This document shows, piece by piece, positions 2,276-25,161 of a stretch of 64,000 nucleotides of DNA. The position numbers and the translations under genes were made by a program. The first letter of the stretch is position 1. Each line of letters begins with the position of its first letter. This stretch comes from Candidatus Oxydemutatoraceae bacterium. GTDB taxonomy: Bacteria > Pseudomonadota > Gammaproteobacteria > Poriferisulfidales > Oxydemutatoraceae. The notes below the pieces were generated by a model that saw nothing but the letters and a program-made list of their open reading frames with translations, was not told where the DNA came from and did not search any database. The stretch lies in NCBI GenBank assembly GCA_965220085.1, contig CBDCOZ010000002.1, forward strand, positions 1-64,000. Reading direction: 5' to 3'.

Positions 2276-2452
2276 CCATATTCCGATGTGTGGTATACTC
2301 GCGTCCTCGGGGCGAGCAAACATTCCTCAGGCTTGCCCCGTCCGCCGCCATTACGGTGTCTGGTATACTGGGGGCCTCGGGGTGGGCAAACTTACTCCTT
2401 AGGTTGGTTCGCCTCGTCCGTCACCATTACGGTGTTTGATATATTGGTGTCA
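2276..2452 (+). promoter_or_regulatory. Tandem TGGTATACT (extended -10-like) plus hairpin array, 2 full units and 1 terminal unit
   Basis: Units are tggtatact..cctc-GGGG(C/T)G(A/G)GC-loop-G(C/T)T(T/C)GCC(C/T)C-gtcc. Same family at 19273 and 22705. Confidence 0.55.
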
Positions 2453-2468
2453 TTATGATTGAAGTCTT

Positions 2469-4779
2469 ATGCAAGACCTGATTAAAAAGCTGATCAAAAA
2501 GTTGCCCGCGAGTTGTCTGCAAACAGAACCGATGCGCATGAAGTCTCTGCCTGCAAAACAAGGGCTTCCATCGGCACAGCAAGCGTTTCCATATGCCCCC
2601 CCCCCCCCCCCCCCCCCTGATTTTTGCTAGGGTTTGCGCGGTGATGCTCGCTTGCGCCAGTGTCTTCGCCACGAGTAGCGCCCACGCGCAAGCCAACAGC
2701 TGTGCGGCGGTCATCCACGGCACCGAATGCATGGACGCATGCCCCGCCGGATTCACCGCCACAACCCAAGACCGCGTGTGCGTTGAGACCGCGCACATCG
2801 ATGGCGCAAACAAATGCGAAGCCAAAGGATGGACAACCCGACTGACGTTTAACTTCGGTCTTTCCTTTTCCCTTTGCGACATAAAAACCGGCAACCTGAC
2901 ATCAACCAGGGACGTTTGCAGTTTTGGCGCCGGCGGCGGCGGCAGTTGCGTTTTTCGTTTCGGTCCGGATCTTAACTTTCCGCAGCGTCCGGCGGACGAC
3001 CCGGCGACGGCGGAAGACGAGAGCGACCCGCGCTATGTATACAACTGCGACACGGACGGAACCACCGGCCACCTTCCGGCGCGTTTCGTTGATGGGCGGA
3101 CGATGTGCGAATGTCCCGCCGGGGCGACAGAAAACGCAGATGGCGTGTGCACATGTCCGGCGCAAACCGTCCCGCTGGGCGAGGCTTGCCTTCCCAACAC
3201 GCCGGAAAACAGATGCAAAGCGGCGGGATGGACGGTCTCGGCCGACAACCAATGCGTCGTCCCCATCGCCTCTCCGGACGACGGTGATGCAAACGGATGC
3301 TTTTTGACCGGCAACGGCAGTCCGCAATGCGCCGATGTGTTCGGACTGGAGCTGTCGTTTCCAAGCCCGTCGACCGACTCCGCCGCGCGGTTTGTCTACG
3401 ACTGCGGTCTGGACATGATCCCGCCGCGCGCAAACACCGACGGCGCGACCGAATGCGCTCCCGACCCGCAAGCGTGCGCATTCGGCGATTTGGAATTTGT
3501 CGCACATACCAGCACACAGAGCAGGGCGCAAATTTCCATGCAGTTTGATGTCTGCGCGGAGAAAGGATGGCAGGCGAAAAAGCATCCCGATTTTGACTCC
3601 GTCTTTAGGGCTTGCTACTGCGACATAAAAGCATGGGATGTGGAACGCCATGACGCGTGCCCCGACCCCGTCCTTTCCTCCCGCTTCAGCCTTGCGGGCA
3701 ATACCGCCCTGCGCTACTACTTCGGCCCGACTCTGGAGTATCTGCCGCAATGGACGGCGGAAAACGCCGATGATTGTTTTGTGGCCTATTGTCAGGACGG
3801 GACGGAGCCGGCCGGGTTCAACACCAACGGCGCGACCGAATGCCAAACGCCCAGCGGGGAAGTTTGCGGCAGTTTGGATCCGCCGCAGGTTTACAACGGG
3901 TTTGTTTGCGTTGCGACGTGCTCGGCGGAGGCGACATTGGACGAGGCGACGAATACGTGCGAATGCAACACGGGCAATGCGGCGGACTGCCGAGTGCCAA
4001 GCACGGAGGCATGCGCGGATTTTACGCCGCCGCGGTTTTACAACGCGGGCGCGGCGCGGTGCGAACCGTTTTTAACCTGCGAACATCCGACGGAATTGCG
4101 CACGACGAGCAACACCTGCGAGTGCGTTTCTCCGTATGTCGGAACGCCTCCTGGTTGCCAGATGCCGTCGCCGGCGGTTTGCGGGGAATTGAGCGGGCCG
4201 CAGTTTTTCGACGGGACGACCTGCGTCGCCGGTAACCGATGTCCGGCGACAACGCACGCCAACACGGAGTCGCGCCGATGCGAATGCAACGATCGGGGCA
4301 AGGTTTACGACGCCGCGGCACAGGCTTGCGTTGCTGCTATTTCGTGTGCTGCGCCGGCGACATTGAGCGCGGAGACGGGCCAGTGCGCATGCGCTTCGCC
4401 CAACGAAGGGACGGCTTCGGATTGCCGCGCGCCGAGCGCGGAAGTGTGCGCGGGATTGATGCCGGCAAAGTTCTTTGATGTTGGCACGATGGCGTGCGTG
4501 GATGTTGCGCAATGCGCCGGGGCGGCGACATTGAACCCGACAGCGAATGCTTGCGCATGCGCCGCGCCCAACATAGGGACGGCTTCGGATTGCAGGGCGC
4601 CGAGCGCGGAAGTGTGCGCGGCGCAGACACCGGCAAAGTTTTTTGACGTTGGCACAACGGCTTGCGTTGATGTTGCGGAATGCGCCGCGCCGATGGTACT
4701 GGACGAGGCGACGAATACATGCGTGTCCGCCGACATCAACCTGCGCCTGCGCATCTTCCTCGAAGGCCCGTTGCGATAA
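2469..4779 (+). CDS. Cys-rich modular secreted protein with poly-C tract in its leader (likely phase-variable; main ORF 2593..4779)
   Basis: Leader MQDLIKK...PYAPPP from ATG 2469 joins the main ORF if C22 (2596-2617) is C21. Signal-peptide-like VMLACASVFATSSAHA-Q. Three CxxxGW-type domains. Ends DINLRLRIFLEGPLR*. Confidence 0.75.
2596..2617 (+). repeat. Poly-C homopolymer (C22), slipped-strand switch candidate
   Basis: Counted directly. Homologous position to the tracts at 19642 and 23119. Confidence 0.85.
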
Positions 4780-4884
4780 CCCGCACCGCTCCGCTCAAGC
4801 CGTCGGCGCGTCCCGTTTGCTTCCTTCGTCGCATGGGCTTCTTGAACAGCGGTCTGCGGTCGCGACCGACTCCGGCGCGGCAAG

Positions 4885-5036
4885 GGATAAACGGCGACGA
4901 CGCCCGACAATCGTGTTTGAGCGGCTCCTCGGAGCCGTTCAGAACCTCCTCTTTCACGCGCATGGAAGCATAAATTCCAACACGGCCGCCACATTTTACT
5001 TCGGCGCAACGCTACAACACCTGCCGTAACGGACGA
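4885..5036 (+). pseudogene. Silent fragment of the variable CxxxGW domain
   Basis: Translates NGDDARQSCLSGSSEPFRTSS/FHAHGSINSNTAATFYFGATLQHLP*RT with a frameshift and a stop. Homologous to ~665-810 and ~20865-21010. Confidence 0.7.
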
Positions 5037-5142
5037 CAGGGGGATTGCATAATTGGGGGGAAACGCGTATGATTCTCGCTTCAATGGAGACGCACGAGTG
5101 AAAACCGCGCACAACCGCCAAACAAGCAAATGGGCGGAGAAA

Positions 5143-6810
5143 ATGCTCCGTGTCCTCGCGCTCGCCAGCACACTCGCCGCCGTCGTCATCGCGCAACCCG
5201 CGCTCGCGCATACCGACGAATGCGCCGCAGGAGAAACCGCCATCGTCGGAACCGACACCTGCATCGCCGACAACCTCCTGGAATTCGGGGACTGGTGCGA
5301 AAACCAAAACGGAGTGCTAAGCGACCACCTGCGCTTTCCCACTAACGCCCCCGGAAAACGATGCTTCATCACGGGAGACGCCGTCGACGGCGCCGGCCGC
5401 GCCGACTGCGCCCCGTTTGTCTGGATCTCGAACGGAACTTATGTTCCGCCCTCCGAAGTGGTCTCGGTCCCCTTTCTAAATTGCTGGATAGCCAACGACG
5501 CAACCACTTCCGCCTGCCCCAGCGGTGGGTCATACTCCGCCGATTCGCATTCCTGCGTTTGTCCGACGGGGAAGGCGGAGTCCGACGGGGTTTGCAGATG
5601 CACGGGAGGGAAGTTGGACGAGGGCGATGCCTGCGTTGACTCATGCACGGGCGACAATTTGGAGGAGGACGGCTATTGCGTCGCATCGTGTTCGGCGAAC
5701 AATCCGCTGACGGAGAACGGCGCCTGCGTCGCCTCGTGTTCGGTGGCGGAGGAGAACGGCGCCTGCGTTTCCGAATGTTCGGCGGACAATCCGCTGCTGG
5801 AAAACGGAAACTGCGTCGCATCGTGTTCGGCGAACAATCCGCTGACGGAGAACGGCGCCTGCGTCGCCTCGTGTTCGGTGGCGGAGGAGAACGGCGCCTG
5901 CGTTTCCGAATGTTCGGCGGACAATCCGCTGCTGGAAAACGGAAACTGCGTCGCCTCGTGTTCGGCGAACAATCCGCTGACGGAGAACGGCGCCTGCGTC
6001 GCCTCGTGTTCGGTGGCGAAGGAGAACGGCGCCTGCGTTTCCGAATGTTCGGCGGACAATCCGCTAACGGAGAATGGCGCCTGCGTTTCCGAATGCACCG
6101 CACCCAACGAAGAGACGGGTTCGGATTGCAAAGCGCCGAGTACGCAGGTTTGCGCGGCTTTGACGCCGGCGAAGTTTTTTGACGTTGGCACGACGGCCTG
6201 CGTGGATTTTCGTTCCTGCGATGCGCCGATGGTATTGGACGAAGCGACGAATACGTGCACGGTGCCGAAGTTGCGGATTGCGGACACCGATACGAGGGGC
6301 GAGGCCAACACGGCGACGATAGCGGAGGACGCAACGACAGGCACAGCGATAGCGGGTGTGACGCTGGTGGCGACCGATGAGGGTGGCAATACCGTAAGCA
6401 GCGCGACCTGGAGCCTGACCGACTCGAATAATCCCGCCTTGTTCACAATAAACAGCACCAACGGCGCAATCACTTTGGCAACGAGCGGCAAGCCGGACTA
6501 CGCAACCACGCCCACCCATAGCGTAACGGTAACCGCCGCCGCCGACGGTTATGAGCGCGCCGAACTGACACTGACAATCAATGTGCTGAGCGCACAAGCT
6601 TGCGCGGCTTTGACGCCGGCGCAATTCTTTGACGAGACAGCGGCGGCCTGCGTTGACATTCCGGTTTGCGCCGCACCGGCGACATTGAACCCGACGATGA
6701 ATGTGTGCGAATGCGCCGCGCCGATGGTATTGGACGAGGAGACGAATACGTGCGTGTCCGCCAACATCAACTTGCGCCTGCGCATCTTCCTTGAAGGCCC
6801 GTTGCGATAA
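5143..6810 (+). CDS. Cys-rich secreted protein with 45-aa tandem repeats, cadherin-like domain and C-terminal tag
   Basis: Signal peptide MLRVLALASTLAAVVIAQPALA-H. 135-bp repeats at 5677-6096. Cadherin-like segment (IAEDATTGT..ATDE..FTINSTNGAITL..DY..SVTVTA). Ends NINLRLRIFLEGPLR*. Confidence 0.8.
   Translation: MLRVLALASTLAAVVIAQPALAHTDECAAGETAIVGTDTCIADNLLEFGDWCENQNGVLSDHLRFPTNAPGKRCFITGDAVDGAGRADCAPFVWISNGTYVPPSEVVSVPFLNCWIANDATTSACPSGGSYSADSHSCVCPTGKAESDGVCRCTGGKLDEGDACVDSCTGDNLEEDGYCVASCSANNPLTENGACVASCSVAEENGACVSECSADNPLLENGNCVASCSANNPLTENGACVASCSVAEENGACVSECSADNPLLENGNCVASCSANNPLTENGACVASCSVAKENGACVSECSADNPLTENGACVSECTAPNEETGSDCKAPSTQVCAALTPAKFFDVGTTACVDFRSCDAPMVLDEATNTCTVPKLRIADTDTRGEANTATIAEDATTGTAIAGVTLVATDEGGNTVSSATWSLTDSNNPALFTINSTNGAITLATSGKPDYATTPTHSVTVTAAADGYERAELTLTINVLSAQACAALTPAQFFDETAAACVDIPVCAAPATLNPTMNVCECAAPMVLDEETNTCVSANINLRLRIFLEGPLR
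6114..6252 (+). repeat. 139-bp direct repeat, copy 1 (copy 2 at 9133-9271)
   Basis: Visual alignment gives about 5 mismatches. Confidence 0.85.
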
Positions 6811-6934
6811 CCCGCACCACTCCGCTCTGGCGCCGGGCGCGAACACAGACACGCCGAGGAACTTGGCGAAGTCGGTGACGGCGAAGTGAGCGAAACCGTT
6901 TCCCGTCTGGCGCACTTTTGATTTTGCCGGCCTG

Positions 6935-6943
6935 TGATATAAT
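6935..6943 (+). promoter_or_regulatory. Extended -10 promoter (TGATATAAT), probable leaderless MTase mRNA
   Basis: Perfect TGnTATAAT ending 6 nt before ATG 6950. No SD sequence. Confidence 0.55.
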
Positions 6944-6949
6944 GCGGCC

Positions 6950-7984
6950 ATGACAACACGGCGCCCCCAGAAAAACGCCTCCATTCTGTCCCTGTTTTCC
7001 GGCTGCGGAGGACTGGACTTGGGCTTCATGGGCGGCTTTCGCTTTCTCGGCAAAACCTACCCCCGCCTGCCCTTTCAAGTGGTCTGGGCGAACGACATTG
7101 AGCCGACGGCATGCGAGACCTATCGGGCGAATCTCGGCGGGGACATTGTCTGCGGCGACGTCCACGACCACCTTGCCGACATTCCGTCCGCGGACGTGGT
7201 GATTGGCGGCTTCCCCTGTCAGGATGTCTCCATCAACGGCAAGGGGCTGGGCGCGGACGGCGAGCGCACCACGCTTTACGGGGCGATGATTCAAGCCGTC
7301 CGCAAGGCGAGGCCCCGCGCGTTTGTGGCGGAAAATGTGCGCGGACTGCTGATGACGCGGCACGACGGACTGCGAAAGGCCATCATCGCCGGATTCGCCG
7401 ACTTGGGATACCGGCTGGATGTTGACTTGTATCTCGCCGCCGACTACGGCGTCCCGCAGATGCGCGAGCGGGTTTTCATTGTCGGCACCAGAAAGGACGG
7501 GAGGCCGTTTGCGCCGCCCTCGGCGCCGCTTTCCCGCGGCAACTGGATTACCGCCCGCGCCGCGCTGGAGGATTTGGAGGGCGCGGAGGAGGGCGCCGTT
7601 GCCAACCACATTTGGAGCAGGGCGAAGCGCGGCGCGGAGCAGGGAAACCGGACGCTGAAAGCCGACCGCCCCGCCGCCACCATCCGCGCCGAATGCCACG
7701 GACACATTCAGTTTCATTACGCCCTGGACCGCCGCATTTCCATGCGCGAGGCGGCCCGGTGCCAGTCCTTCCCCGACCATTTCGCCTTCAAGGGCGGCAT
7801 CCGGCAGATTGAGCGGCAGATTGGCAACGCCGTGCCGCCGGTGATGGGCTGGCACATGGCCAAGTCGGTGCTTGCCGCGCTGGCATGGCCCGCGAAGAAT
7901 TTGAGGCCTTTCTGGACGAGGAGCAAAGCGCCTCGGCCGGGATGTTCGCGACAGCCGCAAATACCACGAGGCGGGGGCCTTTGA
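6950..7984 (+). CDS. dcm: DNA (cytosine-5)-methyltransferase
   Basis: Motifs FSGCGG (I), GGFPCQ (IV), ENV (VI), QxRxR (VIII), REAARCQSFP (IX) and QIGNAVPP (X). Confidence 0.95.
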   Translation: MTTRRPQKNASILSLFSGCGGLDLGFMGGFRFLGKTYPRLPFQVVWANDIEPTACETYRANLGGDIVCGDVHDHLADIPSADVVIGGFPCQDVSINGKGLGADGERTTLYGAMIQAVRKARPRAFVAENVRGLLMTRHDGLRKAIIAGFADLGYRLDVDLYLAADYGVPQMRERVFIVGTRKDGRPFAPPSAPLSRGNWITARAALEDLEGAEEGAVANHIWSRAKRGAEQGNRTLKADRPAATIRAECHGHIQFHYALDRRISMREAARCQSFPDHFAFKGGIRQIERQIGNAVPPVMGWHMAKSVLAALAWPAKNLRPFWTRSKAPRPGCSRQPQIPRGGGL

Positions 7985-8807
7985 AAATCATGTCCTGCGG
8001 GTGATGCAGGAGGTCGCCCACCGGCGCGGACTGCGAATCAATCCGACCAACCACCCCCACGCCTTCCCCGACATCAAGGCCGACGGATTCGGAGTGGAGG
8101 TCAAAAGCACCCGTCAGGACAATTGGAGCGCGCCGGCGAACAGCATTCTGGAGTCCATGCGCGACGAGGACGCCGTCCACCATGTCCGCATCTCGCACGC
8201 CCCGCGCTTTGTCGTCGGCATGGACACGCCGCAAGGCGGCTCCCTGTTCGACAAAATCGGCGTGACATACGAGGAGTTTGCGCGGAAAACCCCGTCGGAA
8301 AAAATGGAGGAGGTGCGGAAATACGCCCGCAGCCGCCTACAGCCGGGGGAGCGGCTGTGGTGGCTGGAGGAGCATCACGCGGTTGACTTGGAAATCCGCC
8401 GCTTTCAGGAATTGGACGACGCGAAAAAGCGGCAAGTTCGCGCCGAAGCCGCCGCGCTTTGCCCCGAAATTGTGGGGCCCGCCCGACAACAAAACAAATA
8501 CGACGGGGCCCTCAAATTCCTTGTCGCGTATCACGGCGTCTTGGCGGCCCGCGACATGTTCACGGCGGGAAGTGTCGGCGCGCCGGACGGACATCGGGGC
8601 GGGGGATATATGCAAAACAGTTTGACGGACATTCAGGCGGAGATGATAACGGCGTTTCAGGAACTGGACGGCAAACTCTTTGAGGAATACTGGCCGCGCG
8701 GGACGGACATCCCCGACAACGCGGAGGGGCGAAAGCGCCAATGGCTCGCCCTCGCCGACGAGATGGCGCAAGGGGAATGGACCCCGTCCGACATCCTGTT
8801 TCGCTAA
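7885..8807 (+). pseudogene. Putative type II restriction endonuclease (PD-(D/E)xK), frameshifted near 7920
   Basis: FPDI...FGVEVK motif in ORF 8001..8807. Its frame extends upstream (KRLGRDVRDSRKYHEAGAFENH), while the plausible start MAREEFEAFLDE at 7885 is in another frame. Adjacent to the MTase. Confidence 0.6.
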
Positions 8808-8856
8808 CCCCCCGCGCCCCCGACAAATTCGGGCCGGATTGGGACTGCGGCGCGCC

Positions 8857-9015
8857 CTACGCAAAATACGCAATCGCCCCAATCACCGCCGACGCCGCGC
8901 ACATCGCCAAACCCAAAAAGCGCAACTGTCCCGGCGCCATCTCGCTCATCTGCGCCATCCGACGCCGAAAGAAATCCGGCCACAACAGCGGAACTGCCCC
9001 CTGCTTCATGGACAT
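8857..9015 (-). pseudogene. DUF2065/YjeT-like small membrane protein fragment
   Basis: Hand translation MSMKQGAVPLLWPDFFRRRMAQMSEMAPGQLRFLGLAMCAASAVIGAIAYFA* resembles the C-terminal part of DUF2065. Confidence 0.45.
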
Positions 9016-9109
9016 AATACGGTCCCCTTTCATCCCAGACTTCGGTGAATTGGAGACAGCCCTGAGCAGGCGCGATTTTCAGGTATTGGAATGGATGCAA
9101 GGCCAATAC

Positions 9110-9334
9110 GCATGCCATGCGCCAAACATCGTGACGGGTGCGGATTGCAAAGCGCCGAGTACGCAGGTTTGCGCGGCTTTGACGCCGGCGCGGTTTTTTG
9201 ACGTTGGCACGACGGCCTGCGTGGATTTTCGTTCCTGCGATGCGCCGATGGTATTGACCGAAGCGACGAATGCATGCGTGTCCGCCGACATCAACTTGCG
9301 CCTGCGCATCTTCCCGGAGGGGTCGTTGCAATAA
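9110..9334 (+). pseudogene. Orphan C-terminal relic of the Cys-rich family with degenerate tag (INLRLRIFPEGSLQ)
   Basis: Near-identical to 6114-6252, then a tag with 3 non-synonymous changes. No signal peptide. Confidence 0.75.
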
Positions 9335-9725
9335 CCGGCATCACTCCAAGCCAACCATGATGACGCCTTGCGCGGGCTTTGCGACACTTATAATGTGGCC
9401 GTGTCTTCTAAAAGCGATCACTCCTGCCGGAGTTTGCTACCGTCCGAATTGCGAATTGCGCGGTGATGGCGATTACGCCTCCTTGCGCAGGCTTGCGCAA
9501 ACGTGCCGACACGAATACGCCCGCGAAGGGAGTGCGCACGGCTACGCAGGCTTGCGCAAACGCGCCGACAGGGACGCACCCGCAAGAGAGTGTTATGCTA
9601 CAATCCGATTATTGTGGCAGGGCGGACAATGCGCCCCCACAAAGGAATGTTCGTTAGCGCGAGCCAGTGAGTGCGAGCGCTCCCCCCGCGAGAGGAGAGG
9701 GTGGACAGAGGCAAGAAAGATATAA

Positions 9726-14425: not shown

Positions 14426-14709
14426 CGGCCTCCCAAGCCCCGCCGCTCTCCCTTCGCCAGAATGCTTTGCGCTTCAAACTCAGGTTAAAGCGCCTTTGAA
14501 ACATCACTCTCCCCCAGTGGGAGGCACATCAAAAGGGCGGGCCGGTGCGGCACCTGCGATGAAGCATGACCAGCGGGGACGGTTATGCCACTGGCGTAGG
14601 TGACGGGCGGCGCATCACCCGCGATGAGGCATGACCCGGAAGCGGGAGCAAAGCACCAAAGGCAGATCCGGCGTAGCCGCCGGTTTATCCCAAGCGGCGG
14701 GTTGCGGGC

Positions 14710-16155
14710 TCAGGGGGCGCGAGGGCCGTGCAGCACCATCATCTTTTCTATTTGCATGTCGTTTATGCTGTGCTCCATGCCGCCTATGCCGAGACCGGAG
14801 CGGCGCAACCCGGCGAATGGCATCTGATCCTGGCGGAAGGCGGTGTGGTCGTTGATCATCACGGCGGAGGCATCCAGTTGGTGATAGATGGCGATGGCGC
14901 GGTCTATGTCTTGGGCGAAGACCGCGGCTTGAAAGGCAAACTCCGGGCTGTTGGCCTGGGCTATGGCATCGTCCAGCCGCTCGTAGCCATACAGGCAGAG
15001 CACCGGGCCAAACACTTCGCGGCGGCTGACATCGGCATCCGGCGGCGGGTCCGCCAGCAGGGTCGGAGCGTAGCAGTTGTTATCCAACTTGCGGCCGCCG
15101 CAGGCCAGATGCGCGCCGCCATCCGCCGCCCGCATCACCCATTGATGCACGCGCTCCTGCTCTTTGGGGCTGATCAGCGGCCCCACTTCGGTCGCCGCAT
15201 CCAGCGGGTCACCCACGCGCAGGGCATTGGCGCCGGCGGCCAGACGCTCGGCCAACTCGTCGCACAGGGTGCGCGGCGCAAAGACCCGTTGCACCGACAC
15301 GCAGACCTGCCCGGCATGGTAGTAGCCGCCCTTCAGCAGGGCCGGAATCAGGCGTTCCACATCGGCGGATTCGTCCGCTATCACCGGGGCTATGCCGCCG
15401 TGCTCCAGAGCACAGCGCACACCCGGCGCCAGGCGCGAGCGCAACATCCAGCCCACAGCGGCGCTGCCGATAAAACTGAGAAATCCCAGACGCGCATCGG
15501 CGGCCATCTTGCCAATCAGTTCCAGACTCTCCGGCAGCAACGCTTGGCACCAGGCCGGCGGCAACCCGGCTTGGCGCAAAATGCCCGCGAACTCAAAGCA
15601 GGATAGCGGCGTGCCGGGCGCCGGTTTGACGATGACCGGGCAACCGGCGGCAACGGCGGCGCCCGCTTGATGCACGATGAGGTTGAGCGGATGGTTGAAC
15701 GCGCTTATCGCCAGCACCGGGCCTATGGGTTCCCTCTGGGTAAAGGCCATGCGGCTGAGATCGGAGTTGGGTTCGCGCATGGGGATGACCTGTCCGGCAT
15801 GCTGGCTGATGGCCTCGGCGCACAACTCCACGCCTTCTATGGCGCGGCCCGCCTCCACGGCGGAATCGCCCCAGGGCTTGCCGCCCTCGCTGGCGGCGGT
15901 GCGTATCAGTTCATCGCGCCGGTCGCGCATGATGGCGGCGGCGTTGCGCAGAATCTCGCAACGGCGGGACACTGGCAGCCATTGCCGCCGGTCACGGAAC
16001 AACGCATAGGCGGTGGTCAGGGCTTGCTCTGCGGCGGCCTCATCGGCCAGAGCGACAGTGCCCAGCAGGCGGTCGTCAAACGGCGAGCGCACCTCGCGCT
16101 TTTTGCCGGACGGCGCGGGCGCTGGCTCTATAAGCGATTCATAATGTACTGTCAT
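14710..16155 (-). CDS. Aldehyde dehydrogenase family protein
   Basis: FNHP, KPA, FIGS, LEHGG, AGQVCVS and EVFGP motifs. Confidence 0.92.
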   Translation of the reverse strand: MTVHYESLIEPAPAPSGKKREVRSPFDDRLLGTVALADEAAAEQALTTAYALFRDRRQWLPVSRRCEILRNAAAIMRDRRDELIRTAASEGGKPWGDSAVEAGRAIEGVELCAEAISQHAGQVIPMREPNSDLSRMAFTQREPIGPVLAISAFNHPLNLIVHQAGAAVAAGCPVIVKPAPGTPLSCFEFAGILRQAGLPPAWCQALLPESLELIGKMAADARLGFLSFIGSAAVGWMLRSRLAPGVRCALEHGGIAPVIADESADVERLIPALLKGGYYHAGQVCVSVQRVFAPRTLCDELAERLAAGANALRVGDPLDAATEVGPLISPKEQERVHQWVMRAADGGAHLACGGRKLDNNCYAPTLLADPPPDADVSRREVFGPVLCLYGYERLDDAIAQANSPEFAFQAAVFAQDIDRAIAIYHQLDASAVMINDHTAFRQDQMPFAGLRRSGLGIGGMEHSINDMQIEKMMVLHGPRAP

Positions 16156-16189
16156 GACTTGCGACCTTCAAACAATCTAGCATACAAAG

Positions 16190-17512
16190 CGTAAGCACTC
16201 AGATGGCGCATGTCAACTCGCCCAGCCGCCGGCTCAGCTTCATGTTCTCGCGATAGTCTGTCGGCACCACCGCCAGACTCGGCCCGGCGGTGGCAAACGC
16301 CTGTCGCAGGCCGTCCGCCAACTCGCCGCTGTTTGTTATGCGCAACCCCTGCCAGCCAAAGGCCGCCGCCAGCTGCATCCAATCCGGATTGCCAAAACTC
16401 AGCGGCGCAGCGTAAGCGCTCAGATGGCGCATGTCAACTCGCCCAGCCGTCGGCTCAGCTTCATGTTCTCGCGATAGTCTGTCGGCACCACCGCCAGACT
16501 CGGCCCGGCGGTGGCAAACGCCTGTCGCAGGCCGTCCGCCAACTCGCCGCTGTTTGTTATGCGCAACCCCTGCCAGCCAAAGGCCGCGGCCAGTTGCATC
16601 CAGTCCGGATTGCCAAAACTCAGCGGCGCAGCGTAAGCGCTCAGATGGCGCATGTCAATTCGCCCAGCCGTCGGCTCAGCTTCATGTTCTCGCGATAGTC
16701 TGTCGGCACCACCATCAGGCTCGGCCCGGCGGTGGCAAACGCCTGTCGCAGGCCGTCGGCCAACTCGCCGCTGTTTGTTATGCGCAACCCCTGCCAGCCA
16801 AAGGCCGCGGCCAGTTGCATCCAGTCCGGATTGCCAAAACTCAGCGGCGCAGCGTAAGCGCTCAGATGGCGCATGTCAATTCGCCCAGCCGTCGGCTCAG
16901 CTTCATGTTCTCGCGATAGTCTATCGGCACCACCATCAGGCTCGGCCCGGCGGTGGCAAACGCCTGTCGCAGGCCATCGGCCAACTCGCCGCTGTTTGTT
17001 ATGCGCAACCCCTGCCAGCCAAAGGCCGCCGCCAGTTGCATCCAGTCCGGATTGCCAAAACTCAGCGGCGCAGCGTAAGCGCTCAGATGGCGCATGTCAA
17101 TTCGCCCAGCCGTCGGCTCAGCTTCATGTTCTCGCGATAGTCTGTCGGCACCACCATCAGGCTCGGCCCGGCGGTGGCAAACGCCTGTCGCAGGCCGTCG
17201 GCCAACTCGCCGCTGTTTGTTATGCGCAACCCCTGCCAGCCAAAGGCCGCGGCCAGTTGCATCCAGTCCGGATTGCCAAAACTCAGCGGCGCAGCGTAAG
17301 CGCTCAGATGGCGCATGTCAATTCGCCCAGCCGTCGGCTCAGCTTCATGTTCTCGCGATAGTCTATCGGCACCACCATCAGGCTCGGCCCGGCGGTGGCA
17401 AACGCCTGTCGCAGGCCGTCGGCCAACTCGCCGCTGTTTGTTATGCGCAACCCCTGCCAGCCAAAGGCCGCGGCCAGTTGCATCCAGTCCGGATTGCCAA
17501 AACTCAGCGGCG
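16190..17512 (-). repeat. 221-bp tandem repeat x6 consisting of the ALS 3' end
   Basis: The stop-codon context recurs at 16199, 16420, 16641, 16862, 17083 and 17304. Units differ by a few SNPs. Confidence 0.95.
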
Positions 17513-18953
17513 TGTGGCGGCCAAACTGTTGCTGTTGCTTCCAGGCTATCAGGCCGTAGGCGTGATCCTCCCAGACCATGCAGACGATGTCGCTGCCCAG
17601 CCGTTTGGCGGTCTCCATCTCCTGCGCATTCATCAGGAATCCGGCATCGCCGGCAATGGCCAACACCTTGCGCTCTGGGCGCACCAGGCTGGCGGCGATG
17701 GCCCCGGGCAGGGCAAAGCCCATGGAGCAAAAGCCGTTGGGAATCAGGCAGGTGTTGGGCTCGTGGCACTGGTAGTGACGCGCCACCCACATTTTGTGCG
17801 CGCCCACATCGGACAGCAATATGTCCTGCGGCCCCATCACCCGGCGCACATCCCACAGCACTTTCTGGGGCCTTATGCTGCCCTCGTCGGTGTCGTCTTT
17901 GTGCGCCGCCAGTTCCTCGCCCATCTGGCGGCGGGTGGCGGCCTGCTGTCTGGTGTCGGGGCAAAGCGGCTGTTTGGCCACGCGCTCATTGAGCATCCAC
18001 AGGCTGTGCGCCAGGTCGCCCACCACCTCCAGCTGCGGATGATAGTGCTCGTCCACCTCGGCCGGCAGAAAATCCAGATGCACTATCGCCTTGTCGCGAT
18101 TCGGGTTCCAGGTGCGCGGATGGTATTCCACCATGTCAAAGCCGATGGAGATGATCAGGTCGGCGGCATCCACCGCGCAGGTGACATAGTCCTTGCTGCC
18201 AAGCCCGATGGTGTACAGGCAGTAATCGGCATCCATGTCCACCGCGCCCTTGGCCATGAAGGTGTTCACCACGCCTATGCCGGTGGCCTCGCAAAACAGG
18301 CGCAGTTGCTTGCTGGCGCGCCGCCGGATGCAGCCGTTTCCGGCCAGTATCAGCGGCCTCTTGGCCTTGCGGATGCGCTCAAAGGCCTGGTTCATGATCT
18401 TGTCATCGGCCACCGGACGGCGGAAGTGCTGCACCGGCAGCGGCGCTTTGTCGCTCGGCTTCTTGGCGATGTCCTCGGCCAACTCAATGTGCACCGCCCC
18501 CGGTTTCTCAGTGCGCGCCAGACGCACGGCCTTGCGCACCACCTCCGGTATGCTGTCCGGATGGTATATGGATGTCGCCCACTTGGTGACCGGACGGAAC
18601 ATGGACACCACATCCATCACCTGATGCGATTCCTTGTGCAGGCGCGTGGATGCCCCCTGACCGGTCAGCACCAGTATGGGCGCGCGATCCATATTGGCAT
18701 CGCCGACACCGGTCAGCAGGTTGGTAGCGCCCGGCCCCAGAGTGCCCAGACAGCCGGCCGGCTCGCCGGTCAGGCGACCGTATATCTCGGCCATAAAGGC
18801 CGCGCCCTGCTCGTGGCGGGTCAGGATAAACTCTATCTTGTCGGACGCATCCAGCGACATCATAAAGTCGGCGTTCTCCTCCCCCGGCACACCGAATATG
18901 TAGCGGATGTTTTCCTCTTCCAGACACTTGACAAACAGATCTGATGCTTTCAC
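17304..18953 (-). CDS. Acetolactate synthase large-subunit family (ThDP-dependent)
   Basis: FGVPGEEN, TRHEQGAAFMA, TLGPGATN, SMGFALP and GDAGF motifs. Confidence 0.92.
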   Translation of the reverse strand: MKASDLFVKCLEEENIRYIFGVPGEENADFMMSLDASDKIEFILTRHEQGAAFMAEIYGRLTGEPAGCLGTLGPGATNLLTGVGDANMDRAPILVLTGQGASTRLHKESHQVMDVVSMFRPVTKWATSIYHPDSIPEVVRKAVRLARTEKPGAVHIELAEDIAKKPSDKAPLPVQHFRRPVADDKIMNQAFERIRKAKRPLILAGNGCIRRRASKQLRLFCEATGIGVVNTFMAKGAVDMDADYCLYTIGLGSKDYVTCAVDAADLIISIGFDMVEYHPRTWNPNRDKAIVHLDFLPAEVDEHYHPQLEVVGDLAHSLWMLNERVAKQPLCPDTRQQAATRRQMGEELAAHKDDTDEGSIRPQKVLWDVRRVMGPQDILLSDVGAHKMWVARHYQCHEPNTCLIPNGFCSMGFALPGAIAASLVRPERKVLAIAGDAGFLMNAQEMETAKRLGSDIVCMVWEDHAYGLIAWKQQQQFGRHTPLSFGNPDWMQLAAAFGWQGLRITNSGELADGLRQAFATAGPSLMVVPIDYRENMKLSRRLGELTCAI

Positions 18954-19269
18954 GGGCGTATCCTCCTGCGCGATGGACTGCCATCATAACCGCAAACCCT
19001 CCGCTTGACAATGCCCCGGATGGTGTCCGGACATAGCGGACACGTGGGGCGATAGAAACCTTGGCCACCGCAGCCGATGGGTTGCTATTGCAGCGTGTTG
19101 TGTTGAAGCCGGGAATCCGGAATGCTTCCGGCATTATGCATGACAACTCGTGGTGATGTCAGGAGTCCGGAATGTTTCCGGCATCGTGCATCACACCGCG
19201 AGCGCTCCTCGCGCGCCATCCCCTCAGTGCGTGCTCGGGCGCTTTTGTGAAGACTCCCTGCGCGCCGCC

Positions 19270-19502
19270 GCCATTCCAATGTCTGGTATACTGTGTCCTC
19301 GGGGTGAGCACTCCGGGCTCACCCCGTCCGTCATCGTTCCAGTGTCTGGTATGCTAGTGTCCTCGGGGCGGGCAAATGTTGCTCCTTGTGGCTCGCCCCG
19401 TCTGTCATCGTTCCAATGTCTGGTATACTAGTGTCCTCGGGGCGGGTAAACGTTACTCCTTGTGGCTCGCCCCGTCTGCCACCATTGCGGTGTTTGATAT
19501 GC
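19270..19502 (+). promoter_or_regulatory. Tandem extended -10 plus hairpin array (3 units and a terminal unit)
   Basis: ttccaatgtctggtatact..gtcctc followed by GGGG..CCCC stems. Confidence 0.55.
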
Positions 19503-19526
19503 CAGAGTTATTATGATCGAAGTCTT

Positions 19527-21940
19527 ATGCAAAACCTGATTAAAAAATTGCCTGCAAGTTGCCTGCAAACAGAACCGATGCGCATGAAGTCTCTGCCTGC
19601 AGAACGAGCGCTTCCATCGGCGAAGCAAGCGCTTCCATATGCCCCCCCCCCCCCCCCTTAATTTTTGCTAGAGTTTGTGCCTCATTAAAACATTGTTTGC
19701 GTGCATTGTGCGCGGCGATGCTCGCTTGCGCTGGTGTCTTTGCCGCGAACACCGCACACGCACAAAGCGAACAATCCAACTGCACATTCAGCGAGGTCGC
19801 CTCTTCCGTCCACTCCTCCGCGCGCGAGCAGGTCTCCCGAATGTTCGACGCCTGCGCGGAAAAGGGATGGGCCATCTTCAAATCCCCCGCCTTTGACATC
19901 GTGCAAGAGTGCTACTGCAATGTCAAGGCGCGGGACGCGTCCCAGCCGGAGCATAATGACTGCCGGAGTTATATTCCCTCCTCCCGGCTGATTTCCAACG
20001 CGGGCAAGCGGCAACTGCACCATTACTTCGGCGCGACCCTGCAGTATCTTCCGGAGCGGACGGAGGAAAACAAGGACGCCTGCTTTGTGGCGCATTGTCC
20101 GGATGGGAAGGAGCCGTCGGGGTTTAATATGAACGGCGAAACCGAATGCGCAACGCCCTCAACGGCGGTGACGGTTCGCGCCATAGCGATGCCGGCAGAG
20201 GGCGGGAGCGCTGCCATTATGGGCGCGACCACCGCCTCGGTGATTCTCAACACCACCGCAACCATCGTCGCCACTCCGGCGGAGGGATGGTATGTCGATC
20301 GGTGGGAAGGCGACGGCGGCGCTTGCGACGGTCAAACCGGCAGGCTCGAAGGTTTCAGGGGCGTGGACACAGACGAGAAATCTTGTTCGCTGCCCGCCGG
20401 CGCCGGACTGACTGTGACGGCGCATTTTGCGTTGGCGCGGGTGACGGTTCGCGCCATAGCGATGCCGGCGGAAGGCGGGAGCGCTGCCATTATGGGCGCG
20501 ACCACCGCCTCGGTGATTCTCAACACCACCGCAACCATCGTCGCCACTCCGGCGGAGGGGTGGTATGTTGACCGATGGGAGGGGGACGGCGGGGCCTGCG
20601 CCGGACAAGTTGGCGGGTTTGGAAGTTCCGGAGCGGCGGACACGGATGAAAAATCCTGCTCGCTGGCCGCGAGCGCCGGACTGACTGTGACGGCGCATTT
20701 CGCATCGGCGCTTTGTGTCTACGACGAGCTTCCGGCGGGACTGCAAACCGTTGCTGTCGACCAACAGATTGACGCGTGCAACGCGAAAGGATGGGGGGCG
20801 CGCAAACACATTGTCGGCGGAAGCACATTGTGCCACTGCAACATCAAGGCGTGGGACGGGAGGCGCGGCGACCCGGCCCGGCAATCGTGTTTGGACGGCT
20901 CCCTCCCGCCGCATCGAACCTCCGAGTTTTCCGCGCGTGGAGACACAGATGCCAACACGGCCGCGACATATTACTTCGGCGCGACCCTGCAACATCTTCC
21001 GGAGCGGACGGAGGGAAACAAGGACGATTGTTTTGTGGCGCGATGTCCGGGGGCGACGGAACCGTCCGGATTCAACACCGGAGGCGAAACCGAATGCCGA
21101 GCGCCAAGCGGGGCGGTTTGCGGGGGTTTGACTCCGGCGAAACATTTTGACGGCGTTGTCTGCGTGGAAAGTTGCGCAACGGGGGCGACATTGAATGCGG
21201 CGACGAATGTTTGCGAATGCGACACGGGAAATTCGGACGATTGTTTAACGCCGAGCGAGGAGGTTTGCGCGGCGCTGACTCCGCCGAAGTTTTTTGACGG
21301 GTCGGATTGCGTTGATTTTGCGACTTGCGCGGGGCTGTTGACTTTGAATCGGCAACGTAACGGGTGCGAGTGCCGCACGCCGAATAGGGGAACGCCTTCA
21401 AACTGTCTTGCGCCGAATCCGGTTGTTTGCGCCGCGCCGGCGGTTCGGCATCCGACGGCGAATGTTTGCCAATGCAATGCGCCGAATGTGGGGACAGGTG
21501 CGGATTGCAAAGCGCCCAGCGAGACGGTTTGCGGGGATTTGATGCCGGCGCAATTCTTTGACGAGACGATGTGCATTGATTTTGTTTCGTGTGATGCGCC
21601 GATGGTGTTGGACACAGCGATGAATATGTGCGCGGCACCGAGCGAGGAAGTGTGCGCGGATTTGATGCCGGCGAAATTCTTTGACGAGACGATGTGCGTT
21701 GATTTTGTTTCCTGCGATGCGCCGATGGTATTGAATACGGCGACGAATATGTGCGCGACACCGAGCAAGGAAGGGTGCGCGAGTTTGACGCCGGCGAAAT
21801 TCTTTGACGAGACGATGTGCGTTGATTTTGTTTCCTGCGATGCGCCGATGGTGTTGGACACAGCGATGAATACGTGCGTTGAGGCGTCCGACAACATCAA
21901 CTTGCGTCTGCGCATCTTTCTTGAAGGCCCGTTGCGATAA
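19527..21940 (+). CDS. Cys-rich modular secreted protein, poly-C leader (likely phase-variable; main ORF in track 19559..21940)
   Basis: Leader MQNLIKKLPAS...PYAPPPPP from ATG 19527 joins the main frame if C16 (19642-19657) is C17 or C14. Signal MLACAGVFAANTAHA-Q. Two CxxxGW domains and two InlB-B-like domains. Ends in the tag. Confidence 0.78.
19642..19657 (+). repeat. Poly-C homopolymer (C16)
   Basis: Counted directly. Confidence 0.85.
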
Positions 21941-21989
21941 CCCGCATCACTCCGCCCAAGCCAACTGTGATCACGCCTTCTTGTGCGGG

Positions 21990-22212
21990 CATTGCAATCG
22001 CTTTGCCACCGATTGCGCACATTTTCACTGAGCGCTCCCCTTTGCAAGCGGCGGCGCTTCGGCAATGTCGGCGGCAACGGTTACTCCTTGCGCAGGCTTT
22101 GCGATTGCTTTGCCGCCGATTGCGCACATTTTCACTGAGCGCACCCCCTTTGCAGGCGGCGACGCTTCGGGCAGTGTTGTCGGCAACGATTACTCCTTGC
22201 GCAGGCTTTGCA
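21990..22212. repeat. ~108-bp imperfect tandem duplication
   Basis: gctttgcc(a/g)ccgattgcgcacattttcactgagcgc occurs twice. Confidence 0.8.
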
Positions 22213-22695
22213 CATTTATAATGTGTCATGTCTTCTAAAAGCGATTATGCCTCTTTTGCCCAACTATGATTACGCCTCCCTGCGGGCTTTGCGCATTGCT
22301 CGCCGTAAACACTCTTGCCTCGCAGGAGTCGGCAAGCCACGGGGGGCAACCGGCAGGCAGCTTGGCAACACTTATGAATGTGTCATGTCTTCTAAAAGTA
22401 ATCACCCCTCCTTTGCGGGGGCTTTGCGCATTGCCCGCCGTAAACACTCTTGCCTCGCAGGAGTCGGCAAGCCACGGGGGGCGACCGGCAGGCAGCTTGG
22501 CAACACTTATGAATGTGTCATGTCTTCTAAAAGTAATCACCCCTCCTTTGCGGGGGCTTTGCGCATTGCCCGCCGTAAACACTCTTGCCTCGCAGGAGTC
22601 GGCAAGCCACGGGGGGCGACCGGCAGGCAGCTTGGCAACACTTATGAATGTGTCATGTCTTCTAAAAGCGATTACGCTTCCTTTGCGGGGGCTTG
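22213..22695. repeat. 135-155-bp tandem repeat array (about 4 units)
   Basis: AATGTGTCATGTCTTCTAAAAG at ~22220, 22377, 22512 and 22647. Confidence 0.9.
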
Positions 22696-22702
22696 TTGTG
22701 CG

Positions 22703-23012
22703 CCGCCGTTCCAATATCTGGTATACTGTGCCCTCGGGGCGAGCAGACATTCCTCAGGCTTGCCCCATCCGCCACCATTCCAATGTCTGGTATACTGTGT
22801 CCTCGGGGTGAGCACTCCGGGCTCACCCCGTCCGTCACCATTCCAGTGTCTGGTATGCTAGTGTCCTCGGGGCGGGTAAATGTTGCTCCTTGTGGCTCGC
22901 CCCGTCTGTCACCGTTCCAATGTCTGGTATAATGGTGTCCTCGAGGCGGGCAAACTTGTTTCTCGGCCCGCCTCGTCCGTCACCATTGTGGTGTTTGATA
23001 TGCCGGTGTCAT
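22703..23012 (+). promoter_or_regulatory. Tandem extended -10 plus covarying hairpin array (4 units and a terminal unit)
   Basis: Stems ggggcgagc/gcttgcccc, ggggtgagc/gctcacccc, ggggcgggt/gctcgcccc and gaggcgggc/gcccgcctc. One unit has a perfect TGGTATAAT. Confidence 0.6.
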
Positions 23013-23027
23013 TATGATTGAAGTCTC

Positions 23028-25161
23028 ATGCAAAACCTGATTAAAAATTGTCTGCAAGCAGAACCGATGCGCATCACATATCCGCTCGCAAACAAGCGGT
23101 TCCGTGTGTATCATATAGCCCCCCCCCCCCCCCCTAATTTTTGCCAGAGTTTGCGCGGTGCTGTTTGAGAAGCACCTTTGGTCGTCGCTTGTCAGTGGCT
23201 TAATTCGTAACTGGACTTGCGCGGTGCTGTTTGTTTGTGTCTTCGCCACAAACACCGCACACGCACAAGCCGACCAATCCAACTGCGCGCTCAGCGACGC
23301 CGTCACCGAGTTTCCCTCCTCCGCGCACGCGCAAATTTCCCAGCAGTTTAACGCTTGCGCGAACAACGACTGGGCTGTGCTGAAGCATCCCGGCTTCGGC
23401 TTCGGGGCGAACCTTGACCGCTGCTACTGCAACATCAAGGTGCGGGACGCGACTTTGCATTCCGCCAACTGTAGCCACCCCTCTCAAACTTCCGTATTCA
23501 GCGTCACCGAAAGTATCGGCAACCTCCGCTATCACTTCGGCGCAACATTGCAACACCTGCCGCGGCGGACGGAGGAAAACAAGGACGCCTGCTTTGTGTC
23601 GCACTGTCCGGACGGGGAAGAGCCGTCCGGATTTAATACGAATGGCGCAACCGAATGCGCAACGCCCTCAACGCCGGTGACGGTTCGCGCCATAGCGATG
23701 CCGGCGGAGGGCGGGAGCGCTGCCATTATGGGCGCGACCACCGCCTCGGTAATTCTCAACACCACCGCGACCATCGTCGCCACTCCGGCGAAGGGATGGT
23801 ATGTCGATCGGTGGGAAGGCGACGGCGGCGCTTGCGCCGAACAAACCGGCAGGCTCGGAGGTTTCAGGGGCGTGGACACAGACGAGAAATCTTGTTCGCT
23901 GCCCGCCAGCGCCGGGCTGACTGTGACGGCGCATTTTGCGTTGGCGCGGGTGACGGTTCGCGCCATAGCGATGCCGGCGGAAGGCGGGAGCGCTGCCATT
24001 ATGGGCGCGACCACCGCCTCGGTAATTCTCAACACCACCGCGACCATCGTCGCCACTCCGGCGGAGGGATGGTATGTCGATCGGTGGGAGGGCGAAGGCA
24101 ACGCATGCGCCGGACAAACCGGCGGGTTTGGAAGTTCCGAAGTCGCGGACACGGACGAGAAATCTTGTTCGTTGCCCGCCAGCGCCGGACTGACTGTGAC
24201 GGCGCATTTCGCATCGGCGCTTTGTGTCTACGACGAGCTTCCGGCGGGACTGCAAACCGTTGCTGTCGACCAACAGATTAACGCGTGCAACGCGAAAGGA
24301 TGGAGCGCGCGCAAACACATTGTCAGCGGAGTCACATTATGCCACTGCAACATCAAGGCGTGGGACGGGGGGAACGGCGACCCCGCCCGACAGTCGTGTC
24401 TGAACGGCTTATGGCCGCCGCACCAAACCTCGGGCTTTCACGCGCGCGGAGACACGAACTCCAATTTGTTTGCCCCATTTTACTTTGGCGCAACCCTGCA
24501 ACACCTTCCGCAACGGACGGAGGAAAACCAGAATGATTGTTTTACAGCGCGATGCGCGGGCGGGGCGGAACCGTCGGGATTCAACACCGACGGCGAAACC
24601 GAATGCCAGGCGGCAAGTGCGCAGGTGTGCGGGGATTTGACGCCGACGAAACACTTTGACGGCGGCGCCTGCGTGGAAAGCTGCGCGATGGCGGCGACAT
24701 TGAACCCGACAACGAATACGTGCGAATGCAACGCGCCGAACGTGGGGACGGCGCAGGATTGCAGAACCGCCACGCCGGCGAACTGCGAACGTTTGCAAGG
24801 GACTCAATTTTTCGACGGGACGACTTGCGTTCAAACTTGTCCGGGGGCCTCGGTCGGAAACACGCAGACGCATGAGTGCGAATGTCTTGCGTCGAATACG
24901 GGGACAGTTTCGGACTGTCGCGCGCCGGACGGGGGGACGGAGCCGGTTGTTTGCGCGGGGGTAGCGGTTCGGAATCCGACGGCGAATGTTTGCGAATGCA
25001 AATTGCCGAATGTGGGGACGGGTTCGGATTGCAAGGCGCCGAGCGCGGAAGTTTGCGCGGATTTGACACCGCCGAAGTTCTTTAACAGGATGGCCTGCGT
25101 CGATGCGCCCGACGACATCAACTTGCGTCTGCGCATCTTTCTTGAAGGCCCGTTGCGATAA
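23028..25161 (+). CDS. Cys-rich modular secreted protein, poly-C leader (likely phase-variable; main ORF 23158..25161)
   Basis: Leader MQNLIKNCLQAEPMR...IAPPPP from ATG 23028 joins the main frame if C16 (23119-23134) is C15 or C18. Signal AVLFVCVFATNTAHA-Q. Same architecture as 19527. Ends in the tag. Confidence 0.78.
23119..23134 (+). repeat. Poly-C homopolymer (C16)
   Basis: Counted directly. Confidence 0.85.

Follow-up and report, generated by a model that had tools for sequence, protein, structure and literature searches.

What do long runs of cytosine do when a gene carries them after its start codon and ahead of its signal peptide, and can their length decide whether the gene is expressed? 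This question is raised by three paralogous genes (copies 1 to 3) in the first 64 kb of contig C2 (CBDCOZ010000002.1) of a Candidatus Oxydemutatoraceae bacterium, a stretch of 64,000 nucleotides hereafter referred to as the window; the genome comprises 2.49 Mb in three contigs and has a G+C content of 55.8%. Near its 5' end each gene carries a poly-C tract (tracts 1 to 3), behind which a long frame opens for a predicted secreted protein with a C-terminal tag. The analysis described below indicates that the tracts probably serve translational slipped-strand phase variation, in which the tract would be read as poly-proline in the n-region of the signal peptide.

A search of the window for runs of twelve cytosines (C12) yielded 21 overlapping matches, which correspond to the three tracts, and no match in 100 dinucleotide shuffles. 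Upstream of each tract lies a conserved leader starting with MQ(D/N)LIK, whose start codon we denote the distal ATG. The distances from the distal ATG to the tract are 127 (start at 2469), 115 (19527) and 91 nt (23028); all are 1 mod 3, and all three stretches are stop-free. According to frame arithmetic, fusion of the distal leader to the body of the protein requires C21, C17 and C15 in copies 1 to 3, respectively, or lengths 3 nt longer or shorter. As assembled, the leader open reading frames (ORFs) stop past the tract, at TAG 2628-2630 (53 codons), TAA 19659-19661 (44 codons) and TGA 23166-23168 (46 codons). In silico, a change in tract length of 1 or 2 nt decides, in each of the three window genes, whether the product is full-length or truncated. 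A second candidate start, denoted the proximal ATG, touches the tract in copy 1 (ATG 2593) and together with C22 gives an ORF of 728 amino acids; its counterpart in copy 2 (19639) opens 10 codons only, and in copy 3 a TAG stands at this point.

The original prediction had listed tracts of C22, C16 and C16, the leader ATGs and the lengths C21, C17 and C15 needed for fusion, and had described a proximal ATG that is in frame with C22 in copy 1, out of frame in copy 2 and missing from copy 3. All of this was reproduced, including the tract coordinates. Its further claim that every copy is out of frame holds for the distal MQ(D/N)LIK start and fails for the ATG that touches the tract, which is in frame in copy 1 and in a fourth copy found elsewhere in the genome.

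The long frames beyond the tracts encode 719-760 residues and start with (L)IFARVCA.., followed by a hydrophobic stretch ending in AHA-Q. Read from the translations, the features of a Sec-type signal peptide are present in the form ..LIFAR / VCAVMLACASVFA / TSSAHA-QA and its equivalents. The InlB B-repeat domain PF18998 was matched in two of the three window proteins, a repeat content that points to adhesins, and the tagged proteins as a group are predicted to be surface-exposed.

Several observations bear on the question of whether the tracts are translated. Compared with copy 1, an extra 33 nt in copy 2 and an extra 60 nt in copy 3 follow the tract; both insertions keep the frame and are stop-free. 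A simple consensus scan, which weak or non-sigma-70 promoters may escape, found no -35/-10 pair across any of the three tracts and no sigma-70 pair in the repeat region of copy 1 (2290-2440). The nearest promoter-like sites are located ~210 nt upstream of the tracts and ~95 nt before the distal ATG, so that both candidate starts would be on the transcript. The frame-keeping insertions, the missing spanning promoter and the AGGAG-like site with ATG that precedes the tract at most loci of the genome (see below) together place the tract inside the coding region. A homopolymer switch in a promoter spacer was rejected because no hexamer pair spans the tracts and their flanks are coding. Pairing of a G-run with the poly-C run in RNA was likewise rejected; folds of the 5' untranslated region (UTR) plus leader of copies 1 and 2 were no more stable than those of shuffles (z -0.12 and -1.33). 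The elongation factor EF-P, which aids the translation of poly-Pro, is intact in the genome.

The arrangement is not confined to the window. Across the genome there are 90 C/G runs of at least 9 nt, 81 of which measure 13-28 nt. The run lengths are bimodal, with 434 runs of 6 nt declining to 10 runs of 8 nt and a second mode at 13-28 nt, and the longest A/T run of the genome is at most 9 nt. On the C-reading strand, 83 of the 90 tracts precede a long open frame of 161-4215 codons that ends in ..(L/I)RLR(L/I/V)FLEGPLR. This tag, RLR(L/I/V)FLEGPLR plus stop, closes 225 frames, 186 of which have at least 150 codons; a 5' tract is found in 82 of these 186. Within the window the tag occurs at positions 1644, 4755, 6786, 14401, 21916 and 25137. 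It contains no hydrophobic helix, and no Pfam or NCBIfam model matched it. In a few genes the tag motif is internal and is followed by GGSS...

The leaders in front of the tracts are of several types. Of the tracts, ~60 are preceded, at a distance of 7-15 codons, by an ATG that has an AGGAG-like site (MN(K/R)Q.FNT). Eight loci are in frame as assembled with the sequence M....FNT-T-P(5-8)-..HWRATLTRLSLWSL.LPALFAVCAQAQA-Q, which corresponds to a signal peptide with a long n-region. The ESPR profile PF13018 gave no Pfam match in eight in-frame N-termini (E up to 10) or in P0001-P0003, and an ESPR ancestry of the short leader MN(K/R)Q.FNT, which lacks Pfam support, was rejected. Tagged genes without a tract start with AGGAG-8 nt-ATG and read MFASIHSLKICAAMMLAC.., and the tract therefore stands in for a few codons of the n-region. 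A second long-leader class of eight loci has the order AGAGG-8 nt-ATG, 39-60 codons (M..NMTPNSF..IQ.FCG.LKT..FNAAQ..), poly-C and signal peptide; one of the eight is in frame as assembled (P0079), and two also have an ATG after the tract (MFNKVFAA).

The state of each locus was scored with a heuristic that takes the nearest ATG within 75 nt and prefers one with a Shine-Dalgarno-like site; 11 tracts have no ATG within this distance. By this nearest-ATG measure, 22 of the 79 scorable loci are in frame as assembled and 57 are out of frame, and the downstream frames are open for the full 161-4215 codons irrespective of this state. Because the out-of-frame loci retain intact bodies, they appear to be expressed at times, a hallmark of reversible switching and not of decay. 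The switch of three paralogs that had originally been proposed thus stands in its anatomy and falls short in number, since ~82 loci with several leader types were found genome-wide. Its stochastic character, with the tract read as poly-Pro ahead of the signal peptide, fits this anatomy and the genome-wide pattern (83/90); the flipping of tract length itself is only hinted at.

In the mechanism that we favor, each gene would constitute a contingency locus whose poly-C run separates the start codon from the n-region of a Sec-type signal peptide. Slippage during replication would shift the run by one or a few bases and so set whether the start codon matches the frame of the body. In-frame lengths would yield Met or the leader, Pro(5-8), LIFAR and a hydrophobic core ending in AHA before Q, and the body product would be a secreted, Cys-rich, C-terminally tagged protein of 675-760 amino acids; off-frame lengths would yield a peptide of 44-53 codons. 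With ~82 such switches over a family of ~186-225 tagged genes, each cell may display a random subset.

Evidence on tract length itself comes from a second assembler. The Logan contigs of sequencing run X1, in which the organism has a depth of ~14-17, reproduce C16 at tracts 2 and 3. At tract 2 the contig breaks exactly at position 19642, and a contig of depth 5.14 has one extra C compared with the main form (~17). As tracts 2 and 3 are of equal length and differ within one run, real heterogeneity fits more easily than a uniform platform error. In five pairs of tract loci with flanks at least 85% identical, the tract lengths differ by 6, 3, 2, 0 and 0 nt. Judged from these assembled sequences, tract length is likely to switch within the population.

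A number of points weigh against this reading. Tract 3 lies in run X1 on a gap-free contig of depth 14.3 that shows C16 only and no variant. Logan contigs drop rare variants and probably derive from the assembly's own reads, and the raw-read Hi-C run X2 provided only 19 reads, which were mostly poly-C fragments and carried no length information. Every platform is prone to errors in homopolymers of 16-28 nt, and the individual ON/OFF states are hence unreliable. MutS and MutL are intact, which means that there is no special mutator background; lost mismatch repair was rejected as a cause on the same ground. The Shine-Dalgarno site is good at neither candidate start of the window genes. Moreover, the leader codons of copies 1 and 4 differ by 3 synonymous and 5 non-synonymous changes and thus reveal no clear purifying selection.

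These reservations bring up other explanations of the tracts. Long homopolymers are miscalled by all platforms, and the tracts could be real and each have one fixed in-frame length, in which case the out-of-frame loci would reflect length errors and nothing would switch. The single length of tract 3 in the contigs is in line with such an artefact, as is the in-frame share of 22/79, which is near the 1/3 expected from random length error. We nevertheless consider it very unlikely, because the agreement of the second assembler at tracts 2 and 3 speaks against an assembler quirk, because a mixture of C16 and C17 at tract 2 next to a clean tract 3 in one run is not predicted by uniform platform error, and because tract lengths diverge by as much as 6 nt between paralogs whose flanks are nearly identical. 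Error also cannot account for 81 runs of 13-28 nt at one gene position. The 57 out-of-frame loci could instead be taken as signs of a decaying family: the host-associated genome would be shrinking, and the tracts would be mutational debris left in its pseudogenes. Gene relics and decayed tags nearby and the many tandem duplications favor this view. In 83 loci, however, the downstream frame runs on for hundreds to thousands of codons without a stop, and the tract position is constant and always on the C-reading strand; both render the idea highly improbable.

The remaining two explanations concern how the tract is read. It might be non-coding and act as a transcriptional or 5'-UTR switch, with translation from a GTG or ATG before ..LACA... 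One gene caller placed the N-terminus of copy 1 (P0004) past the tract, at MLACASVF. The poor ribosome-binding sites of both upstream ATGs point the same way, as do an ATG after the tract at other loci (MFNKVFAA at C3:1297719 and 1302027, MRKGSKR at C3:1083197, on contig C3) and the tracts of other genera of the order, which are in non-coding repeats. However, a start at MLACA would leave the signal peptide without a charged n-region, and copy 3 has no ATG there. Given also the missing -35/-10 pair, the 33-nt and 60-nt insertions that keep frame between tract and core, the Shine-Dalgarno site and ATG upstream of the tract at most loci and the unremarkable folds of the leader RNA, a switch of this kind is most improbable. 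Alternatively, decoding might be leaky: RNA polymerase would slip on the 16-28-nt C run and generate mixed mRNAs, and the tract, helped by poly-Pro stalling, would act as an expression damper or rheostat. In the portions of the literature available, known switches typically have tracts of 8-13 nt, a length that the present tracts far exceed, and a fully homopolymeric RNA:DNA hybrid favors slippage. On the other hand, transcription insertions are described in an excerpt of a genome-wide study as occurring mainly in A and T runs (PMC5574713). Leaky decoding is unlikely as the explanation of the tracts; it is compatible with switching at the DNA level, to which it could add.

For DNA-level phase variation, the choice of the start codon determines which copies are ON, and two sister copies on contig C3 are informative in this respect. 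The fourth copy, at C3:1960005, has the same leader and C22 and is 93% identical over 321 nt. The fifth copy starts at C3:1581175; its tract has decayed to an 18-nt C/T-rich remnant and its MQ(D/N)LIK leader is absent. In this copy the proximal ATG is in frame with a tagged ORF of 796 codons (MPPSFPCIFARVCA..) and represents its nearest in-frame start. The proximal ATG is kept as TTTCC(A/G)(T/C)ATG in four of the five paralogs, the C22 tracts of copies 1 and 4 are in frame with it, and it gives an n-region of the same length as that of the tract-less genes. In favor of the distal start, four copies share an open leader frame whose phase is conserved despite indels, all of which are multiples of 12 nt. 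The A/T-rich block before the distal ATG is the best-conserved part of the region, recurs at 19488-19526 (copy 2) and 22989-23027 (copy 3), and has a motif confined to the four leader-bearing copies. Copy 3 has no proximal ATG and carries a GTG in its place, in the frame of the leader; the second long-leader class has a proper AGAGG-8 nt-ATG start; and C17, the minor form at tract 2, would fuse the distal leader.

In view of these data we consider the proximal ATG about as likely a start as the distal MQ(D/N)LIK codon. If the proximal start is used, copies 1 and 4 would be ON and copies 2 and 3 OFF; if the distal start is used, all four would be OFF. The two starts lie in different frames before the tract, so that the subfamily would have a three-state switch if both work. 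One phase would then give a ~50-residue leader, the second Met-polyPro and the third nothing, and together with ~80 sister switches on ~200 tagged genes this would form a combinatorial generator of surface coats, unusually large for a genome of 2.5 Mb, a scenario that we regard as doubtful.

The regions upstream of these genes contain repeats. Arrays of 69-74-nt units occur solely upstream of the five members of the subfamily, including those at C3:1581000-1581100 and C3:1959700-1959800. Each unit combines an extended -10-like element, TGgTATA(C/A)T, with a G+C-rich hairpin (CCTCGGGGCGGG..CTCGCCCCG), and the arrays could be repeated promoters or a REP-like element. The coordinates of all features are compiled in the table.

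Features of the three poly-C genes of the window and loci of the second long-leader class. Positions without a prefix refer to the window; C3 denotes contig C3.
Feature	Coordinates	Strand	Basis or remark
Two copies of ~70-nt repeat unit (TGgTATACT, hairpin CCTCGGGG..CGCC(T/C)CG), copy 1	2290..2440	+	motif matches at 2305, 2360 and 2375
Conserved A/T-rich block before distal ATG, GGTGTTTGATAT..ATTATGAT.GAAGT.T, copy 1	2430..2468	+	most alignment columns invariant
Distal leader ORF, copy 1, MQDLIKKLIKKLPAS..AFPY	2469..2595	+	one base off the body phase at C22
Proximal ATG, copy 1	2593..2595	+	abuts the tract; in frame with the body at C22
Poly-C tract 1, C22	2596..2617	+	read from sequence; C12 search
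Signal peptide, copy 1: n-region LIFAR and hydrophobic core, AHA before QA	2618..2688	+	translation; predicted cleavage, AXA rule
Mature Cys-rich protein 1, C-terminal INLRLRIFLEGPLR then stop	2689..4779	+	
Array of 74-nt repeat units, copy 2	19274..19478	+	last unit CTGTCA-16-TATACT with TG, 19402-19429
Distal leader ORF, copy 2	19527..19641	+	contains proximal ATG 19639-19641 in a different frame
Poly-C tract 2, C16	19642..19657	+	sequence; C12 search; minor C17 form in run X1 contigs
N-region with in-frame 33-nt insertion, then signal-peptide core, copy 2	19658..19762	+	
Mature protein 2: two InlB B-repeat-like units, Cys-rich repeats, C-terminal tag	19763..21940	+	
Array of 69-74-nt repeat units, copy 3	22701..22990	+	CTGTCA-16-TATAAT with TG, 22906-22933
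Distal leader ORF, copy 3	23028..23118	+	shorter; GTG replaces proximal ATG, in the leader's frame
Poly-C tract 3, C16	23119..23134	+	sequence; C12 search; equal length in gap-free run X1 contig
N-region with in-frame 60-nt duplication, then signal-peptide core, copy 3	23135..23265	+	
Mature protein 3, C-terminal tag	23266..25161	+	
Second long-leader class, eight loci	C3:168307, 1239442, 1241571, 1244757, 1296542, 1297719, 1302027, 1304848		

The protein family is rare: a search of 1.84 billion proteins gave 141 representatives at E <= 0.001. Several distant homologues from other metagenomes share the layout MQRCC-P(2-8)-RKFEIKFALRRIG followed by a hydrophobic core, and their in-frame Pro runs are of varied lengths; in some of them the Pro run is interrupted, which corresponds to a 'locked' version. 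For the homologues P0010, P0022, P0026, P0096, P0104 and P0119 the annotated frame ahead of the Pro run is one of two, ..AFNAVCAMQRCC-Pn or ..AFLTRFVVC.AA-Pn, both of which follow the conserved start MN(T/P)LR(Q/R)... With two annotated frames after one start, the leader DNA seems to be open in two frames.

Closer relatives were sought at several levels. The GyrB protein reached only 56-62% identity to diverse Gammaproteobacteria. P0005 had no match at E <= 1e-10 in 52 further genomes of the order, the comparison of P0002 with public genome contigs found no relative, and the conserved leader pattern had no match in metagenome contigs. The combination TAATACTR+C12 occurs at 35 loci in metagenomes, none of which is related beyond the motif and the tract; the longest other match covers 133 nt at 73% and lies in an unrelated place. 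In genome G022, which belongs to another family of the same order, 15 of the 17 fetched poly-C/G runs (loci L093-L109), 21-26 nt in length, lie in one dispersed repeat, ..GGCCAGAACGGTCAGGAAACGGAGGCTATG-Cn-TATGCGGGAAGACGACG... The runs of G022 are not at gene starts of the tagged family and hence provide no evidence for the present system. It seems that the whole order is characterized by long poly-C runs, which are put to different uses.

The surroundings of the three genes are rich in repeats and remnants. The spacers after tagged genes at 1725-2084, 22284-22694 and 25216-26121 consist of tandem units of 124, 135 and 156/310 nt that are 92-97% identical. A gene relic occupies 4772-5050 in the spacer after gene 1 (fragment ..YFGATLQHLP, then stop), and a decayed tag (INLRLRIFPEGSLQ, then stop) is located at 9251-9335 ahead of a tagged gene of 1584 codons. 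Among the tagged genes, a C-5 cytosine DNA methyltransferase (PF00145, E 3e-63) is encoded at 6950-7984. Six tandem 221-nt copies at 16188-17512, 98% identical, give rise to a ladder of overlapping 162-codon ORFs and adjoin an aldehyde dehydrogenase gene (14710-16155, minus strand). Finally, the segment 40000-52000 is a low-G+C island (0.41-0.48 versus ~0.60) that encodes a DUF4007 protein, an AAA_21/AAA_15 ATPase and two ORFs of 1116 and 808 amino acids without Pfam matches; it resembles an acquired island of the defence or mobile type.

If the tracts flip, they would make up one of the largest sets of homopolymer switches known, with ~82 on a single tagged secreted family. This would imply strong pressure for surface variation, exerted by the host's immunity, by phages or by niche sampling, in a lineage without cultured members; the organism is probably animal-associated. 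The link between an N-terminal switch and a C-terminal tag offers a handle on the tag, whose reader would have to deal with a stochastically changing clientele. In practical terms, gene callers gave the sister genes P0004, P0005 and P0006 three different N-termini, and they will report most members of the family as truncated or as lacking a signal peptide.

Parts of the arrangement have counterparts in well-characterized bacteria. In Bordetella, a poly-C run in fim promoters tunes the transcription of genes for surface structures; the poly-C run and the surface-structure genes are alike, whereas the tract of fim is in the promoter and the tracts described here have coding flanks. The ESPR (PF13018) is also an N-terminal extension before a classical signal peptide on large surface proteins, namely autotransporters and two-partner secretion proteins; here, in contrast, the extension is a short leader plus poly-Pro that does not match PF13018. 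In Neisseria, the repeat of the opa genes is located in the region coding for the signal peptide. According to an excerpt of the published account, opa forms a multi-copy family with CTTCT repeats, in which independent switching of each paralog leads to combinatorial 'phasotypes' (PMC5953494). Both are multi-copy families of surface proteins, here predicted ones, with a genic repeat tract in each paralog, but the opa repeat is a pentamer, there are 4-12 copies per genome compared with ~82 here, and the Opa proteins are unrelated beta-barrels without a shared C-terminal tag.

Homopolymers inside coding regions are documented as well, again as far as the consulted excerpts go. Neisseria nalP gives protein with 7, 10 or 13 C, as confirmed by immunoblot, and mspA with 6, 9 or 12 C (PMC3723659); pilC has G tracts of 9-20 (PMC5953494). 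As predicted for the present family, an in-frame homopolymer in genes for secreted or surface proteins has one productive length phase; pilC, nalP and mspA are, however, single genes with shorter tracts, whereas here the tracts measure 13-28 nt and are uniformly placed before the signal-peptide core. In Gardnerella nanH3, the poly-C run comprises 8-14 nt and lies ~100 nt into the ORF, beside the part coding for the signal peptide; clone libraries revealed mixed lengths within colonies, full protein is made only at 9 or 12 C, and the annotation is muddled by alternative starts (bioRxiv 10.1101/2020.09.16.300947). Its tract follows the signal peptide of one gene in a Gram-positive organism, while those described here precede the hydrophobic core in a whole family.

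On the scale of the genome, the partial sources consulted give 29 tract-associated coding regions for H. canadensis and 115 predicted phase-variable genes for N. meningitidis. The phasomes of Campylobacter, Helicobacter and N. meningitidis thus resemble the present putative one in having dozens of poly-G/C contingency loci per small genome. They differ in that their loci belong to many functional classes, whereas here 83 of 90 tracts are on one tagged family and mismatch repair is intact. A literature search, supplements excluded, for this organism or a comparable poly-C phasome of a symbiont found nothing relevant. The mechanism as such is known; what sets the present case apart is its scale, the 13-28-nt tracts, their uniform placement, their association with one lineage-specific tagged family and the dual-start geometry.

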